From Promethearchaeota archaeon (lineage in GTDB: Archaea > Asgardarchaeota > Lokiarchaeia > Sigyniarchaeales > SOKP01), in NCBI GenBank assembly GCA_019058365.1, contig JAHPZE010000015.1, positions 1 through 64,000 on the forward strand: a stretch of DNA of 64,000 nucleotides. The letters run 5' to 3'. Position numbers and translations under genes: made by a program. Each line of letters begins with the position of its first letter. Within the stretch, counting starts at the first letter, position 1. The notes under the pieces were generated by a model. That model was not told the origin of the DNA. It made no database searches and saw only the letters and a program-made list of their open reading frames with translations. Below, in pieces: positions 5,214-23,403 of this stretch.

Positions 5214-7187
5214 TTGTCTCAATATATAATTGATACTATTAAATTAAAAATAAAAAAAAAGAAATACTCATATGATTTAATTTTAAAAAATGCTATCAAG
5301 TTCCAATTTTTTATGCTAGATTTCATTGATTATCTGAATAAGGAAAGCATCATTCGAAATTTAAAGAATTCTTATAAGTCAGGTATAGATCAACATAATG
5401 AGGAAGGTTTTATCTATAAAGTTATTGAAAATCTAAGTTTATTAAATAAAATCAAGCTACACTACGATCTTTTTATTAGTTTATATGAAAATCTGCGAAG
5501 TCATAAGGAGAAAAAGAAATTAGGTGAATTTTATACTCCTTTATCGGTAGTTAAATATATCTTAGATGGCGTAGGTTATGATTATTTTAATGAAATTGAA
5601 ATTAAAAAATTAATTGATATAAGTTGTGGTTCTGGGAGTTTTATTATCCAAGCGATTAGAAGATTGATTAAAAGATACCTTGAAGTTTATGATCGGAAAG
5701 GAATTTCAGAATTTACCGTTGAAGAAGCTAAGTTGGTAATTGAAAGGATTAAAAATAATATTTATGGTATAGATATTAATCGAATTGCTTGTATTTTATG
5801 TCAGATTAATATTCATTATATATTATTTGATATTTTGGAATTAATTCGAAAAATTGATCCTAATTATCAATTACCATTATTCAATATATATAATTTTAAC
5901 ACACTAACAATTGATACTCCTGAAAAGTATGATTACGTTGTAGGAAATCCTCCTTATTTATTTATTAGAGATATACCAATTATTCAAAAACAGATTATTG
6001 AAAATGGCAATTATGAAACAAATAAGGGTCAATATGATTATTATCAAATATTTATAGAAATTGGATTAAAATTTTTAAAAAATCAAGGTTTATTCGGTTT
6101 TATTGTTCCAGATTCATTACTTGCTCTTTCTAATCGATCAGTTATTAGAAAATATATATATAATAATTCAAAGATCAGAGAAATTTATTATACAGGCCCA
6201 AAATTTAATGAGCCTATCGTTTCAAATATTATCATCATCTTAGAAAAAGAAGACAATGTATTAGAAAGAAATAAAAACAAAATCAAAATCAAAATAAGAA
6301 ATCAACAAGAAAACATAATCCCTCAAAACATTATTGAAAAATGGGGTTACAAATTTTTAGTGCATTTAGATAAGATGGATATTTCAATTCTTGACCATTT
6401 AAATTCAAAATTCCCCAAATTAAAAGATTTACCTAAAAAAAATGATATACAACTTCTTTTAAATAGAGGAGTTGAGTTAACTAAAAGAGGAGAAATAATA
6501 TTCTGTGAATCCTGCAATAAATATTTACCAATTCCTAAAAAAATATTAAAATGCCCCGAATGCAACTCACTTTTAAATAAGCACAATATTGAGCAGATTA
6601 TTTACAAATCATTAGACCACAAAAGGATAAAAAGTAATTTCAAACTATACCTATACTCAATTAGGCGTTATACTAAAACTCAATATAAATATATTGATAC
6701 AACGAAAGTAGGAATAAATTATAAGGATTTTACTAATTATGAAGATCGGATTATCATTCGACAAATTAGCCAAAATAACACAATTTGTGCGACATATGAT
6801 GAGAATTTATCTTTAACATCTCAGTCATTTTATAATTTGAAAATACAAAAATCTTCTATTTCCGAATTTAATACCCTTTACCTATTAGGAATTATTAATT
6901 CCACCTTATTATCATATTATTTCATTAAATCGTTTGGAACGTATAAGACAATATTTCCAAGAATTTTAATTGAAAAAATAAAAGATCTTCCTATTAAAAT
7001 CCCCATGTCTAAAGAGGAGAAAGAAAATGCTAAAAAAATTAAGGAATTAGTAAAAGTAATCTTAGATGAAAAAAATGAAATTAAATATCTCCAGAGAAAA
7101 ATTGATTTTTTAATTTTTGATTTATATCAAATTTCAGATATTACACAAAAGCATATTTTGAATTATATGGAATCCTTGAATAGCTAA
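5214..7187 (+). CDS. N6-adenine DNA methyltransferase (gamma class, Eco57I/TaqI-like), no nuclease domain evident
   Basis: GEFYTP, DISCGSGSF (motif I) before VGNPPY (motif IV); TaqI-like C-terminus (IIIRQI...YLLGIINS...LPIKIP); start uncertain. Confidence 0.88.
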   Translation: MSQYIIDTIKLKIKKKKYSYDLILKNAIKFQFFMLDFIDYLNKESIIRNLKNSYKSGIDQHNEEGFIYKVIENLSLLNKIKLHYDLFISLYENLRSHKEKKKLGEFYTPLSVVKYILDGVGYDYFNEIEIKKLIDISCGSGSFIIQAIRRLIKRYLEVYDRKGISEFTVEEAKLVIERIKNNIYGIDINRIACILCQINIHYILFDILELIRKIDPNYQLPLFNIYNFNTLTIDTPEKYDYVVGNPPYLFIRDIPIIQKQIIENGNYETNKGQYDYYQIFIEIGLKFLKNQGLFGFIVPDSLLALSNRSVIRKYIYNNSKIREIYYTGPKFNEPIVSNIIIILEKEDNVLERNKNKIKIKIRNQQENIIPQNIIEKWGYKFLVHLDKMDISILDHLNSKFPKLKDLPKKNDIQLLLNRGVELTKRGEIIFCESCNKYLPIPKKILKCPECNSLLNKHNIEQIIYKSLDHKRIKSNFKLYLYSIRRYTKTQYKYIDTTKVGINYKDFTNYEDRIIIRQISQNNTICATYDENLSLTSQSFYNLKIQKSSISEFNTLYLLGIINSTLLSYYFIKSFGTYKTIFPRILIEKIKDLPIKIPMSKEEKENAKKIKELVKVILDEKNEIKYLQRKIDFLIFDLYQISDITQKHILNYMESLNS

Positions 7188-7554: not shown

Positions 7555-8538
7555 ATGGAGAGGCTTCCAAGTACCAATCTATTAGAAGAAATATTAAGGA
7601 ACTATTTTAATGAAGTCGAGGGTATAAAAGGTGTAGCTATTTGTGATAGAAATGGTTTCATTATAGCTTCAGAATCAAGACAGGAAAATGAAGAAGATTC
7701 AGATGAGATAATTGGAGTCCTTTCTGCTATGCTTGATTCATATATAGACAGGATTAAGGCTGAATTTGGGAAGACTGAAAGTTTTTTTAATATTACTTCA
7801 ACAGGAAATAAGAAATTTGTGTTTAGTTCGATGGGTCCTAGTTCAATTCTGACTACTGTAGCAGCACAATCAACCACAGACATAGAATTAAAAGTATATT
7901 CAGAACATATCGCAGCTAAAGTTGAATTAATTCTTGATGGAAATATAGATATTTCACCAAAAATCCCAGAAATAATAAAAGCCTTATCAAAAACTCGAGG
8001 AGGTAAACTTCCAGATTTAGCAGGAGAATATTCTAATAAAGTTATTCTTACTGGGGATCATTCTGTTGGAAAAACATCTCTAATAAGAAGATTTGTTGAA
8101 AACAATTTTGAAGAAGATTATATTAGTACAATTGACGTACAAATAAGTAAAAAAATAGTGAATCTGAGTGAAAATACTAAAATGAACTTTATTATTTGGG
8201 ATATTGGGGGTCAAGTACAGCATATGGCTCCCTATAGAGCTAAATTTTATAATGGTGCTAACGCTGCTTTCATAGTAATAGATAGAACTCGTCCTGGTAA
8301 TTTAAGTAGCATTGAAAAATGGTTTAATGATATTAACAAATCAGTTAAACGAAAAATTCCAATTATAATAGTTGGAAATAAATCCGATTTAGTAGATGAT
8401 ATTAATATAAGTGAGGAAGATATAAAATCTATTGCTAAACAATTCGATTTCCATTATATACTTACATCTGCTATGACAGGCGAGAATGTTAATGATGCAT
8501 TTTTATATATTGCATATAGAATAGTAGAGACACTCTAA
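7555..8538 (+). CDS. Roadblock/LC7 domain fused to a Rab-like small GTPase
   Basis: N-terminal GVAICDRNGFIIAS roadblock pattern; G1 GDHSVGKTS, G3 WDIGGQ, G4 GNKSD, G5 TSA; no C-terminal prenylation Cys motif. Confidence 0.9.
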   Translation: MERLPSTNLLEEILRNYFNEVEGIKGVAICDRNGFIIASESRQENEEDSDEIIGVLSAMLDSYIDRIKAEFGKTESFFNITSTGNKKFVFSSMGPSSILTTVAAQSTTDIELKVYSEHIAAKVELILDGNIDISPKIPEIIKALSKTRGGKLPDLAGEYSNKVILTGDHSVGKTSLIRRFVENNFEEDYISTIDVQISKKIVNLSENTKMNFIIWDIGGQVQHMAPYRAKFYNGANAAFIVIDRTRPGNLSSIEKWFNDINKSVKRKIPIIIVGNKSDLVDDINISEEDIKSIAKQFDFHYILTSAMTGENVNDAFLYIAYRIVETL

Positions 8539-8645
8539 TCTTTTGATTACAAACTTTTTTATGAGTTCTAAATTTTTTAAATAATTGGTATACTAAGTCA
8601 AGTATATAAATAAATTAAAAAAAAGTTAAAGGAGGTTTAATAAAA

Positions 8646-9566
8646 ATAGTTCTTAAAATTATTTGGCATGATGTGCTTGCGACTTGAAATACTCGTGGAT
8701 ATGTCATGGGATTTTCAATTAAAGAGCTTACATATAAGGGAAAATATCTTATTTATCTAAGTGAACAAGAATTGACAGGTCCTTGGTTCAGTTTTACACT
8801 AGAAGGGGAAAAAATTGGTTCAATTCCAATTATTCTAAAAAATATTGAGCCCACTCCAATATACAATATGGTTAATACTAGAGCTGGAACAGCATTAAGT
8901 AGAATTACTTTAGATTTCAATATAACAGAGTATCTTAAGAAACTGGTCCAAGAAAAGAAAATACACCCAATACCATTAGTGAAAAAACAATTTGTACGTG
9001 TATATAAAGACATTTTCAATCCTCCTAAAGTACCGTATATTAGTACTTTTTTTACCATGAAAAATATTTCCGATTTCGCTTTGAAAGATTTTTCGATGTA
9101 CTTTGTTTTTGATTTTGATATAAATGGACTTGAAGGATATGACAATGACCTGTCCGGTTATGATGAAGAAAATGATATAATTTATCAATATGATGATACT
9201 GGTTTATATGGTGGAATATCTCCCATTTCTAAATCAACTAACTACGAATCATGTTTAACAAAAGATTTTAAAATTGATCAAAGTAAAATGAATCTTTCTA
9301 ATACTCTATATAAAGGGCGTGGAGAAATTTTATCGGCGTTACAGATTGAATTTATGACATTAGAACCTGATCACACCTTTCAGACAGCTCTAGTGATTTC
9401 TGGTGGTTTCAGCAAAGAGGAACTAATTGAAAATATTAAAGAAGGAAAAAATGATGCGATGAAGCATTTACATCAAGTAAATCGATCTGTAAAATCAGAG
9501 CCACGTAATCTCCAAGAAGAAGCTTTCACAAAAATTAATCTCCAGCAAGCCGAAGATTGTAAATAA
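8646..9566 (+). CDS. Candidate selenoprotein of unknown family (in-frame UGA at 8685-8687); ORF track gives only 8706..9566
   Basis: GGAGGT at 8631-8636, then ATA GTT CTT AAA ATT ATT TGG CAT GAT GTG CTT GCG ACT TGA AAT ACT CGT GGA TAT GTC ATG in frame with the downstream ORF; SECIS-like hairpin 15 nt after the stop. The CDS from 8706 is secure; the extension is inferred. Confidence 0.7.
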
Positions 9567-9568
9567 AA

Positions 9569-9647
9569 AAAATCCTAAATAATGACTCAAATAAAAAACT
9601 CAATCCGAACATTTATTTGATGAATACTCTGCTCGAGGTTGGATTTT
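9569..9647 (+). promoter_or_regulatory. Eukaryote-like SECIS element in 3' UTR
   Basis: AUGAC (9582-9586), 9-bp stem UCAAAUAAA (9587-9595)/UUUAUUUGA (9612-9620), apical loop opening with AAA, UGAA (9621-9624); lower helix AAAAUCC (9569-9575)/GGAUUUU (9641-9647). Confidence 0.75.
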
Positions 9648-9665
9648 AATAAATTACATATTCAA

Positions 9666-10736
9666 TTAATATTTAAAATTATATTTTTGATAATTTAGAA
9701 TAAATTTATTATCAACTTCATTGAGACTTTTTATTTTATATAATAGAATATCTCTTTCTTGATTTGTAATAACAGGAAATTTATAGTAGACAGATTTATA
9801 TTTTATTTCTTTATTTTGCTTTTGATATTTTTCTATAAAATTGATATGCTGATTTAGTCTATCATTTAATAATTCAAGATTAAGTTGTTTAATATTCTCT
9901 ATATTTTTTTTAAATATATTTATGAATTCGGAGTTAATCTCATACCCAATTGAATTTCTTGCAGAGATCATTGCTGCTAAAGATGTTGTTCCTGTTCCCC
10001 AGAAAGGATCTAAAATTGTATCTTCATATAAAGAATACATATTAATTAAACGACAGGGCAATTCTAAAGGATAAGCTGCTGAACGTTCCCTGATTTTATT
10101 TTGATTAGAAATGTTTTTGTTTAGATTTTGAGAAGATCCCCTTATCCCCTCCCAGATATCTGAAAACCATTTATTCCTTTCTTCCCAAAAAAAAGCACTA
10201 TGATATCTATTTTCAGATTTTGGTAGTATATCTTGTCTAATATCTCCTTTTCTAAAAAGTAGAATGTACTCATGCTCAAGAGTAACATACGCATTTGGAG
10301 GTAGCATTCCAGAACCTAAGAACTTATTTGGACTATTTGTTGGTTTTTTCCACAGGATACTAGGTAATTCAACAAAATCTTTATTTTGGAAAAAGCTGAT
10401 TATTTTTGCATGATTTGGAAATAATTGGAAGGTCTTACCAATTTTTCTTGTAGCATCTCCAATATTTATGCAAGCAATTCCTCCTAATTTTAATACTCTT
10501 ATTACTTCATTCCACACTTTCTCTAACTCTATATGCATTAAATTAAATGCTTTTTTACTATTTTCCTCTTCAAGTACTTTTTTTATCTCATTATTTAGAG
10601 TAAAAAATAATGAATCCCACATCTCGATCATAGGATAAGGTGGTGAAGTTATCATCAAATCTACAGAATTAGATTCTATTTCACTCATATCTGATGAATT
10701 TTTGAAAAATATTTTATGAATAGTATCCATTTTCAA
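9666..10736 (-). CDS. Site-specific DNA methyltransferase, beta class (probably N4-cytosine)
   Basis: ITSPPY catalytic motif precedes the DPFWGTGTT SAM-binding motif. Confidence 0.9.
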   Translation of the reverse strand: MKMDTIHKIFFKNSSDMSEIESNSVDLMITSPPYPMIEMWDSLFFTLNNEIKKVLEEENSKKAFNLMHIELEKVWNEVIRVLKLGGIACINIGDATRKIGKTFQLFPNHAKIISFFQNKDFVELPSILWKKPTNSPNKFLGSGMLPPNAYVTLEHEYILLFRKGDIRQDILPKSENRYHSAFFWEERNKWFSDIWEGIRGSSQNLNKNISNQNKIRERSAAYPLELPCRLINMYSLYEDTILDPFWGTGTTSLAAMISARNSIGYEINSEFINIFKKNIENIKQLNLELLNDRLNQHINFIEKYQKQNKEIKYKSVYYKFPVITNQERDILLYKIKSLNEVDNKFILNYQKYNFKY

Positions 10737-10919: not shown

Positions 10920-12020
10920 TTAGTCTAATAATTGATTAAAATATCCAATAATTCTCAGTTTATTATCAAATCGATTAAAATCTGTTATAATTCCTTTTAA
11001 TCCAGAGCCATTATGATAAAGAAATTTATCAAATTTCATATTAACTATTCCAGAGCTTCCAGGAAGAATTTCTTCTCCGTTTATAAATTTAAATGGTGAA
11101 GTTTTTAAGTCTACTAACGCGTTATATTGAATTCCATTTCCTGGTTTAATAGAATTATTTTTTGGTTTATAAAATTGATTGACAAAAACCCTTGCCTTAA
11201 TTTGATGTTCTGATTTGTATAATCCTTGATTAATTAAAATATTATCTCTACTGATATCATCTGCGGAAATATTACCCTTTAAAGCAAGACCGACTCGATC
11301 ACCTTTAATAGCCATTTTAAAATCTCGATCATGTTTTTGGATACTTCGAATAATAACTTTTTTACTTGGACCATCATATCCAGTTAATTCCAACATCTGA
11401 CCTGTGTTAACTCTCCCTTCTTTAATAATTCCTAAAATAACTGTTCCAATACCCTTTACTGGAAAAGCATGATCTATCAAAATTTTTGTAATTCCATTAA
11501 TCTCTACATTTAATTCTTGAGACTGTGAATGAATTTCAATTATTTTCTTTTTCAGCGTAATGTAATCTTCTTTAATCTTCAAATCGAATACTTGTGCATC
11601 TTTTAAACTTGTTGTATCAAGAATTTTTTTTAATTTATTTTTAAAATCTAATAATTTCCATTCATTACTTGAGTTAATACCGGAAATAATTACTAAATCT
11701 TTTGTATTATATAATTGGTGAAATAAGTCCATCCCAACTATTATTTCACCTATAATAGAGTTTAAGCCCATATCTAAATCTATAACCAAAATGTGAATAT
11801 TAGTTAAGACCAGTGTTTGTAAAAATGGTTTAATTTTATCAGGATAATCTAAGGGAGTTAAAGCACAAAATACTTGGTTCAACTCACTATCAAGTCTATT
11901 ATAAAATTGGATATCTGATTTTGTACCGGGAGCACCTAATGCTTGTCCTATAAGTTTATTGTGTTCTAAATTTTCTCCAAAAATTCCTACAATAAAATTA
12001 TGTTCTACTGATTCACTCAT
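10920..12020 (-). CDS. Archaeal SelB-like translation factor homologue (aSelBL type; EF-Tu domain II, degenerate G domain)
   Basis: IDHAFPVKGIGTVILG...RSIQKHD...GDRVGLALKG domain II motifs; no intact GxxxxGKT P-loop. Confidence 0.8.
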   Translation of the reverse strand: MSESVEHNFIVGIFGENLEHNKLIGQALGAPGTKSDIQFYNRLDSELNQVFCALTPLDYPDKIKPFLQTLVLTNIHILVIDLDMGLNSIIGEIIVGMDLFHQLYNTKDLVIISGINSSNEWKLLDFKNKLKKILDTTSLKDAQVFDLKIKEDYITLKKKIIEIHSQSQELNVEINGITKILIDHAFPVKGIGTVILGIIKEGRVNTGQMLELTGYDGPSKKVIIRSIQKHDRDFKMAIKGDRVGLALKGNISADDISRDNILINQGLYKSEHQIKARVFVNQFYKPKNNSIKPGNGIQYNALVDLKTSPFKFINGEEILPGSSGIVNMKFDKFLYHNGSGLKGIITDFNRFDNKLRIIGYFNQLLD

Positions 12021-22845: not shown

Positions 22846-23403
22846 ATGTTAATCGCCATTACCGGAGCCACTGGAATTGATCTAGCCATCAAACTTCTAG
22901 AAACTCTGAGAGAAAAGAAAATCGAAACAGAATTAATAATTTCAAAAAATGCTGAAAAAGTAATTTCTTTAGAAACAGATTATAATATCTCTGATATTCA
23001 AAAATTAGTGAATCAAAATTATGATGCAAATAATTTATTAGCACCTCCAGCCAGTGGTTCTCATAAGGAGGATTCTATGATAGTTATTCCATGTTCAATG
23101 AAATATCTTTCAGCAATTGCAAATGGATATGCGAATAATTTGATAACTAGGGCTGCAGACGTAATGATAAAAGAAAAGAGAAAATTGATACTTGTTGTTA
23201 GGGAAACTCCCTTTAGTGTTATCCATCTTGAAAATATGCTTAAATTAGCAAAAATTAATGTTGTAATTTTTCCACCAATCCCATCATATTACATCAAACC
23301 AAAAACCGTAGAAGAACTCACTGAGTTTACAGTAGGTAGGATCTTAGACCATGTTGGAATTGAGAGTGGGATAAAAAGATGGGGAGAAAACTACAAAAAA
23401 TAA
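22846..23403 (+). CDS. ubiX: Flavin prenyltransferase
   Basis: AITGATG, PASGS, PCSMK, NLITRAADV, RETP. Confidence 0.93.
   Translation: MLIAITGATGIDLAIKLLETLREKKIETELIISKNAEKVISLETDYNISDIQKLVNQNYDANNLLAPPASGSHKEDSMIVIPCSMKYLSAIANGYANNLITRAADVMIKEKRKLILVVRETPFSVIHLENMLKLAKINVVIFPPIPSYYIKPKTVEELTEFTVGRILDHVGIESGIKRWGENYKK

Follow-up and report, generated by a model that had tools for sequence, protein, structure and literature searches.

Does the gene annotated at position 8706 begin at its ATG codon, or is the annotated frame the remainder of a longer one that continues upstream through an in-frame TGA? This question is raised by the window analyzed here, a stretch of 64,000 nt from contig JAHPZE010000015.1 of the Promethearchaeota archaeon assembly GCA_019058365.1. 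The preliminary description of this DNA had favored the longer frame, with selenocysteine (Sec) at residue 14, and all of its sequence elements (the GGAGGT, the 20-codon extension, the TGA, and the 306-codon frame) were found where it had placed them. The features of the locus are as follows.

8631..8636, + strand: Shine-Dalgarno sequence GGAGGT, from the sequence
8646..9566, + strand: corrected coding sequence of a putative stand-alone beta-supersandwich selenoprotein of 306 aa, from homologue comparison, with the fold taken from an orthologue model
8646..8648, + strand: inferred non-AUG start codon ATA, from codon conservation across 74 loci
8685..8687, + strand: in-frame TGA, putative Sec14 (codon 14); TGA in 74/74 family loci and Cys in 10 sister-family loci
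8706..8708, + strand: Met21, the annotated start, internal in the proposed reading; ATG in 72/74 family loci
9558..9560, + strand: Cys305, the penultimate residue and candidate partner of Sec14; invariant in 71/71 aligned orthologues
9564..9566, + strand: TAA stop codon of the 306-codon frame, from the sequence

The ATA at 8646 lies 9 nt after GGAGGT, and 20 in-frame codons lie between it and the annotated ATG at 8706. When the TGA at 8685–8687 is read as a residue, a single open frame of 306 codons results, which contains the annotated 286-aa ORF. The database copies of close homologues are all hypothetical proteins of 285–287 aa with Promethearchaeota or Lokiarchaeia labels; from these homologues and the gene content, a Lokiarchaeia-type Asgard host is inferred. 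As judged from sequence comparison, the database annotation of this widespread Lokiarchaeia gene is very probably 20 codons too short, and the product very probably contains selenium.

Conservation of the UGA codon

The 306-aa gene was found in 123 of the 134 genomes of the same family, almost always as a single copy, and in 14 genomes from three other families of the order. Counts across orthologous loci are not independent because these genomes are kin. Codon 14 is TGA in all 74 family loci read, which span 38–99% identity, and is TAA, TAG, or a sense codon in none. In these loci, codons 2–13 vary like the gene body (0.27, 0.12, and 0.50 at the first, second, and third codon positions, respectively), unlike the DNA upstream of the start (0.35, 0.37, and 0.44). 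Third-position variation dominates in codons 2–13 as well as in codons 15–20, indicating that the sequence is conserved as protein-coding both before and after the UGA. Furthermore, no indels besides introns are present between the start and Met21 among the aligned orthologous loci, and in most genomes of the family, the match to a profile from which all recoded sequences had been left out begins at position 3–5 and continues through the TGA. Orthologues are conserved upstream of Met21, which argues against a start only at that codon.

In a sister family, the codon-14 position is occupied by the second Cys of a CxxC motif (10 loci and Promethearchaeum syntrophicum DSAG12_02345), and these Cys orthologues begin at a Met equivalent to the proposed upstream start. 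A CxxU motif is present in five loci, four from two further families and one from a deep-branching member of the own family, and 73 of the 74 family loci have a hydrophobic residue in place of the first Cys of the motif. Position 14 was expected to show TGA/Cys pairing if the reading was correct, and orthologues have either TGA or Cys there. The absence of a CxxU motif, as initially described, is correct for the window protein but not for the family; given the orthologues with CxxU or CxxC, the motif of the window protein can be regarded as a CxxU that lacks its first Cys. In a tree inferred without the motif columns, the CxxC genes are on one side of a branch, the CxxU genes come next, and the xxxU genes are nested. 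The order of these events is a reading rather than a result because the root of the tree is not known. Two of the CxxC genomes were tested and both have SepSecS and a TGA-containing selD, suggesting a choice between Sec and Cys rather than a loss of the machinery.

Start codon and adjacent introns

Codon 1 is ATA in 56 of the 74 family loci and ATT in three, whereas ATA accounts for only 28 of the 93 Ile codons further inside this stretch. The orthologue L082 has ATG at exactly codon 1, and three orthologues have ATG two codons before it. A Shine-Dalgarno-like core is present at a similar distance from the start in the 74 family loci. In 26 of these loci, an in-frame stop occurs three or fewer codons upstream of codon 1, such that no earlier start is possible there. 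Based on these patterns, translation of the 306-aa protein would most likely start at the conserved AUA at 8646. Genome-wide, ATG starts peak 7–11 nt after GGAGGT, but no enrichment of ATA after GGAGGT was detected. A general AUA-start rule is not supported by that test, and the AUA start looks specific to this gene. Elsewhere among the orthologues, L046 has an apparent ACG start where L044 has ATG. Position 21 is ATG in 72 of the 74 family loci and encodes Phe in the other two; it is not Met in the sister families. Given its conservation within the family, an additional Sec-free product of 286 aa may be possible.

Five genus members (L006, L021, L025, L029, and L049) have an insertion of 28–32 nt one base after the TGA, which always shifts the frame. 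In gene orientation, the insertion site is at about position 1470 in the first four of these loci and at about position 300 in L049. Each insertion has a 4-bp helix flanked by two 3-nt bulges, and the 5' strand holds the first two bases of the UGA; the outer helix is variable or weak. Cuts after the second base of each bulge restore the conserved frame exactly, and cutting at this position is the rule for archaeal tRNA-type introns (PMC10485636; PMC2738675). The insertions are thus inferred to be tRNA-type (bulge-helix-bulge, BHB) introns that are spliced, although no transcript data are available. The window's own copy has no intron, and its genome has two genes for splicing-endonuclease (EndA) subunits. 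In the genus tree, the intron-bearing genes occupy four separate positions interspersed with genes that lack the intron, which implies repeated intron gain or loss.

SECIS element in the 3' region

A eukaryote-type SECIS element was identified downstream of the stop codon, with the following parts.

9569..9647, + strand: eukaryote-type 3' UTR SECIS, from a 72-sequence alignment and covariation
9569–9575/9641–9647, + strand: lower helix, from the sequence and RNAfold
9582–9585, + strand: AUGA, beginning 15 nt after the stop, from the sequence
9587–9595/9612–9620, + strand: upper stem, nine Watson-Crick pairs in the window, from the sequence and RNAfold
9596–9611, + strand: apical loop of 16 nt, A-rich and beginning with AAA, from the sequence
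9621–9624, + strand: UGAA, from the sequence
9627–9637, + strand: side hairpin within the internal loop, conserved in the alignment and absent from the preliminary description

Both helices were found by RNAfold in the window element (-11.3 kcal/mol). The element fits the Asgard eSECIS-like model (PMC11227280), which has an AUGA_GA core, an upper stem of 7–15 bp, and apical adenines; no Rfam model matches it. The search pattern for this element occurs 14 times in the genome, compared with 3–7 times in order-3 Markov genomes of equal size, and its chance is about 5e-5 per 100-nt window. This figure is optimistic because the allowed loop lengths had been chosen broad enough to include the window element. 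The decisive evidence is conservation rather than the chance estimate. An alignment of 72 3' regions shows little or no variation in the U-GA and GA bases of the core and in two adenines of the apical loop. Pairing reaches 98.8% in the 8-bp upper stem, where six of the eight pairs have two-sided changes, 86.5% in the lower helix, and 90.7% in the side hairpin, which has 32 two-sided changes; overall, 17 of the 19 pairs show a two-sided change. Values this high did not occur in any of 500 shuffles, and scores dropped sharply when the register was slid. These comparisons carry the caveat that the structure was derived from the same sequences on which it was tested and that the sequences are kin. 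A strict SECIS core follows 66 of the 74 TGA genes of the family and none of the 10 CxxC genes, such that the hairpin is indeed kept downstream of orthologues. The perfect 9-bp stem first noted, together with the AUGAC 15 nt past the stop, the UGAA, and the lower helix, is present in the window. However, most orthologues have A.G at the ninth pair, which limits the conserved stem to 8 bp.

The apical loop of the window element (9596–9611) differs from those of the closest relatives, whose proteins are 98–99% identical, and the stems are unchanged. For four CxxU genes of two distant families, no canonical SECIS was found within 1500 nt upstream and 800 nt downstream, and this absence is unexplained. 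Three of these CxxU orthologues (L108, L109, and L110) share a different short hairpin of 6–7 bp with a 5-nt loop and compensatory changes directly after the stop, which is possibly a variant recoding signal.

Selenocysteine machinery

The genome contains SelD, PSTK, SepSecS, EFSec, and tRNA-Sec, which were named at the outset as the machinery that a true selenoprotein would need. SepSecS is present, and two selD genes each have an in-frame TGA and a SECIS-like 3' end. The EFSec-like factor scores just below the curated cut-off (240.9 versus 242.25 bits), and the PSTK match is also under its curated cut-off. A tRNA with a UCA anticodon and a Sec shape, interrupted by introns, lies between EFSec and SepSecS; its low score is attributable to the introns. 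These three genes are located within 7 kb on contig C34. The tRNA-Sec (L136:~140–300; C34 about 23040–23200) was missed by ARAGORN and by Rfam thresholds, and it has one 29-nt intron in the T-loop and apparently a second in the D-arm. In addition, the genome has a VhuD/MvhD gene with two TGA codons. Within the window, 10920–12020 (- strand) encodes a SelB-like/EF-Tu domain 2 protein of 366 aa; the true EFSec is instead the one on C34.

Two paralogous ORFs of about 160 aa are located beside an Acr3-like arsenite transporter gene (L135:1749–2230 and L135:3541–4030; C34 about 290.2–292.6 kb). In both, tandem TGA-TGA codons (motifs DUU and GCUU) precede some 38 conserved codons, after which comes a lokiSECIS-like hairpin. 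The GCUU motif of this family is kept in 30 of the 30 loci read, and homologues are found in 134 of 161 genomes of the class. These ORFs very likely represent a second uncatalogued selenoprotein family.

Predicted fold and conserved cysteines

The fold prediction and remote searches used the natural CxxC orthologue P0121, unaltered, together with database homologues. P0121 shares about 27–30% identity with the window protein, to which the fold is transferred by homology. The P0121 model (mean pLDDT 84, pTM 0.86) has about 17 strands followed by helices, and its structure corresponds to the beta-supersandwich found at the N-terminus of enzymes from GH94, GH149, GH116, and GH15 (Foldseek E about 1e-7). 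Superposition on the supersandwich domains of these glycoside hydrolases (GHs) gave VIA Z scores of 17–21 with rmsd of 2.6–4.2 A over 220–260 residues, and the N-terminal domains of GH94, glucodextranase, and glucoamylase gave Z of 19–21, with an rmsd of about 3 A over 220–240 residues. Galactose mutarotase/aldose 1-epimerase, an assignment that would also call for catalytic His/Glu residues, scored below the GH domains on fold alone (Z 12–13). The nearest Atlas models belong to three unnamed archaeal clusters. The model has no catalytic (alpha/alpha)6 barrel, as its 306–309 residues are occupied by the sandwich and short helices, and the protein has no hydrophobic segment. The 306-aa protein is thus predicted to be a soluble, stand-alone beta-supersandwich with C-terminal helices, as shown by modeling for the Cys orthologue. 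The suggestion of a beta-supersandwich, which had been made from the residue pattern alone, is borne out by this model.

No Pfam match above the cut-off was found for the recoded protein, no NCBIfam match for 55 members, and no match in a PDB sequence search. Among known selenoproteins, SelD, HdrA, VhuD, VhuU/FrhA, PrxL, AhpF-N, DsbA-like, FdhA, FwdB, and HesB-like proteins were considered and rejected, as none gave a profile match and the fold is a beta-supersandwich. The earlier exclusion of SelD, HdrA, MvhD/VhuD, Fdh, and thioredoxin-fold proteins is consistent with the lack of Pfam/NCBIfam matches and the supersandwich model.

Neither position 14 nor Cys305 varies among the 71 aligned orthologues, even at identities as low as 21%. 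The conserved residues also include an acidic motif (D156-x-D158-x-x-G161) but no invariant His. In the orthologue model, the Sec14 position is on a loop after the first strand, and residues 10–17 and 302–309 have pLDDT <50 and are probably mobile. Because both termini are of low confidence, the distance between position 14 and Cys305 is not determined. The idea that the penultimate Cys is a redox partner thus gains from the invariance of both positions and remains without structural support for their proximity. Shorter sandwich homologues without the cysteines occur in other Asgard families, and some large proteins give weak matches to a portion of the sandwich. The Thorarchaeia-type homologues have neither the cysteines nor the GTPase neighbor described below, and remote homologues have CxxCxxC but not the C-terminal Cys. 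One family has a longer protein in which some 400 additional residues, partly masked, are joined to the CxxU domain (L111:2047–4125, - strand).

Gene context

The gene directly upstream encodes a GTPase fusion protein.

7555..8538, + strand: fusion gene of roadblock/LC7 and a small (Rab/Ras-like) GTPase; Pfam Ras E 2e-36, weak Robl_LC7

Of 88 orthologous loci, 77 have this fusion gene as the immediate upstream neighbor in the same orientation, in Sec and Cys families alike, and in P. syntrophicum it lies 21 nt upstream of the CxxC orthologue. It is possibly co-transcribed with the selenoprotein gene. Among the exceptions, one gene is inserted in two loci, several loci have short flanks, and the GTPase gene is nearby on the opposite strand in one locus (L111). 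The inserted gene encodes about 580 aa and lies between the GTPase and selenoprotein genes in two genus members (L113:2413–4149 and L114:3914–5656). The GTPase gene is missing beside three CxxU genes, all from one family. The downstream neighbors are variable. In the window, the pair is flanked by DNA methyltransferase genes at 5214–7187 (+ strand; Eco57I/TaqI-like) and 9666–10736 (- strand; N6/N4 type), and no obvious nuclease accompanies these two genes.

Proposed explanation and alternatives

We are nearly certain, on comparative grounds, that this is a real selenoprotein gene of an uncatalogued family, with Sec at residue 14. The initial placement of Sec at this residue is supported by conservation, Cys pairing, the SECIS element, and the machinery. 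Incorporation of selenium is nonetheless inferred from comparative genomics, and no transcript, proteomic, or selenium evidence is available. In the proposed mechanism, ribosomes would load at GGAGGT and start at AUA 8646, and UGA 8685 would be decoded as Sec via the 3' SECIS, EFSec, and tRNA-Sec, yielding a soluble protein of 306 aa. Sec14 is inferred to be the reactive center. Cys305 would be its most likely resolving partner, the first Cys of CxxC being lost. The distribution of CxxC, CxxU, and xxxU by lineage, together with the invariant C-terminal Cys, leads to the inference of a Sec14–Cys305 selenenyl-sulfide redox pair, which we narrowly favor despite the undetermined distance. Because the gene is kept behind the roadblock-GTPase fusion across two families, the protein may provide a redox or selenium-status input to the GTPase module, a role that is unproven and that we regard as possible but short of an even chance. 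In addition, the weak AUA start and, in some species, the tRNA-type intron beside the UGA would be expected to limit or gate synthesis.

The simplest alternative is that the annotation is right, with the TGA as a stop, a 286-aa protein made from Met21, and the upstream codons forming a conserved leader. The uniform length of the database copies, the ATG at Met21 in 72 of 74 loci, and the non-canonical nature of the proposed start are all compatible with it, but a stop codon would be free to drift to TAA or TAG and never did so in 74 loci. Moreover, the profile free of recoded sequences crosses the TGA in most family genomes, the Cys orthologues begin at the equivalent upstream Met, and the SECIS follows TGA genes only, which together make this alternative very unlikely. 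A lineage-specific genetic code in which UGA specifies Trp or Cys is hardly conceivable: nothing beyond the open frame speaks for it, several orthologues of the 306-aa gene end in TGA, the single tRNA with a UCA anticodon that was found is Sec-shaped, and a SECIS is present. Two products are also conceivable, a Sec form from AUA and a Sec-free form of 286 aa by re-initiation at Met21, which would act as a selenium-dependent isoform switch. Such a switch could draw on the weak start codon, the short distance (18 nt) from the UGA to a near-invariant ATG, and, in 49 of 74 loci, a GGA codon located 6 nt ahead of this ATG. However, the residues beside Met21 are equally invariant, such that its conservation needs no special cause, and the short form would lack the first beta-strand of the modeled sandwich; with Phe at this position in two loci as well, we consider the switch improbable.

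The remaining alternative accepts Sec insertion and differs in its purpose, namely metal binding, with ligands from both ends of the protein, or tuning of carbohydrate binding, rather than a redox relay to the GTPase. The sister-family proteins offer three cysteines (CxxC and the C-terminal Cys), the CxxCxxC of remote homologues occurs without the C-terminal Cys, the closest folds are domains of carbohydrate-active enzymes, and the acidic D156-x-D158-x-x-G161 motif is conserved. Yet the hydrophobic replacement of the first Cys in 73 of 74 family loci reduces the chalcogen ligands to two, a catalytic barrel is lacking, and a common fold proves no function; we therefore regard this alternative as unlikely, though it cannot be dismissed. 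As a whole, the selenoprotein reading is with high confidence the best explanation of the locus, with the redox pair and GTPase link as less certain inferences within it. A more specific synthesis is only tentative and may well be wrong: an Asgard-specific selenoprotein on a carbohydrate-enzyme scaffold may serve as a selenium/redox switch for the roadblock-GTPase module, under up to three stacked, non-standard controls: initiation at AUA, recoding of the UGA through the SECIS, and, in certain species, splicing by the tRNA endonuclease one base past the Sec codon.

Comparison with known selenoproteins and folds

Surveys list seven Asgard selenoprotein families (PMC11227280; PMC4989117), and a 2026 review counts 119 prokaryotic families, 11 of them in archaea (PMC13188914). 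The archaeal families reported are all common to bacteria or methanogens and were mostly found by homology (PMC13188914; PMC11227280). The preliminary description had allowed that the 306-aa family may already appear in Asgard surveys, but it is absent from the accessible ones, namely the 2016 and 2024 surveys and the 2026 catalogue of 119 families (PMC4989117; PMC11227280; PMC13188914). No description was found elsewhere in the literature, excluding subscription journals and supplementary candidate lists from deep learning. The family shows that surveys overlook genes masked by the combination of a non-AUG start with an early UGA. In our searches, the family matched only in Asgard genomes. 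Most genomes of the largest family within Lokiarchaeia encode it. Its predicted fold is not listed for any selenoprotein in the catalogue, and its gene neighbors GTPase signaling rather than energy metabolism. Its recognition corrects well over a hundred truncated annotations. The family can be tested now, as the cultured P. syntrophicum has the Cys form, and about 70 natural SECIS variants with a side hairpin provide material on how Asgard archaea, in the absence of SBP2, read SECIS elements of the eukaryotic type.

The closest known parallels are the lokiSECIS genes (SelD, VhuU/FrhA, VhuD/FrhD, HdrA, and PrxL; PMC4989117; PMC11227280), which share the in-frame UGA aligned to Cys, the same machinery, and a SECIS a few bases past the stop with an AUGA_GA core, a short upper stem, and apical adenines. 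The 306-aa family satisfies each criterion of this class that sequence analysis can address, without belonging to any of the listed families. In contrast, it has no sequence or fold relation to these genes, starts at a non-AUG codon, and has an apical loop of 16–18 nt with a side hairpin instead of 11 nt. The introns of its relatives resemble the BHB introns of crenarchaeal cbf5 pre-mRNA and HVO_1309 (PMC2738675; PMC10485636) in being short, located at a key residue, and built of a 4-bp helix with two 3-nt bulges, but they differ in having an Asgard host, lying beside a recoded UGA, and being patchy within one genus. With the N-terminal supersandwich of GH15 glucoamylase/glucodextranase (1LF6, 1ULV) and of GH94, GH149, and GH116, the family shares the predicted fold, including the following helix, whereas its sequence identity is only about 10%, and it stands alone without an (alpha/alpha)6 barrel and has a Sec/Cys motif. 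Finally, the AhpF-N-like and DsbA-like Asgard selenoproteins (PMC11227280) are likewise lineage-restricted Sec/Cys pairs. These have a thioredoxin fold, are known from bacteria, and comprise 4 and 2 sequences, respectively, whereas the 306-aa family has another fold and is spread through 123 of the 134 genomes of a single family.
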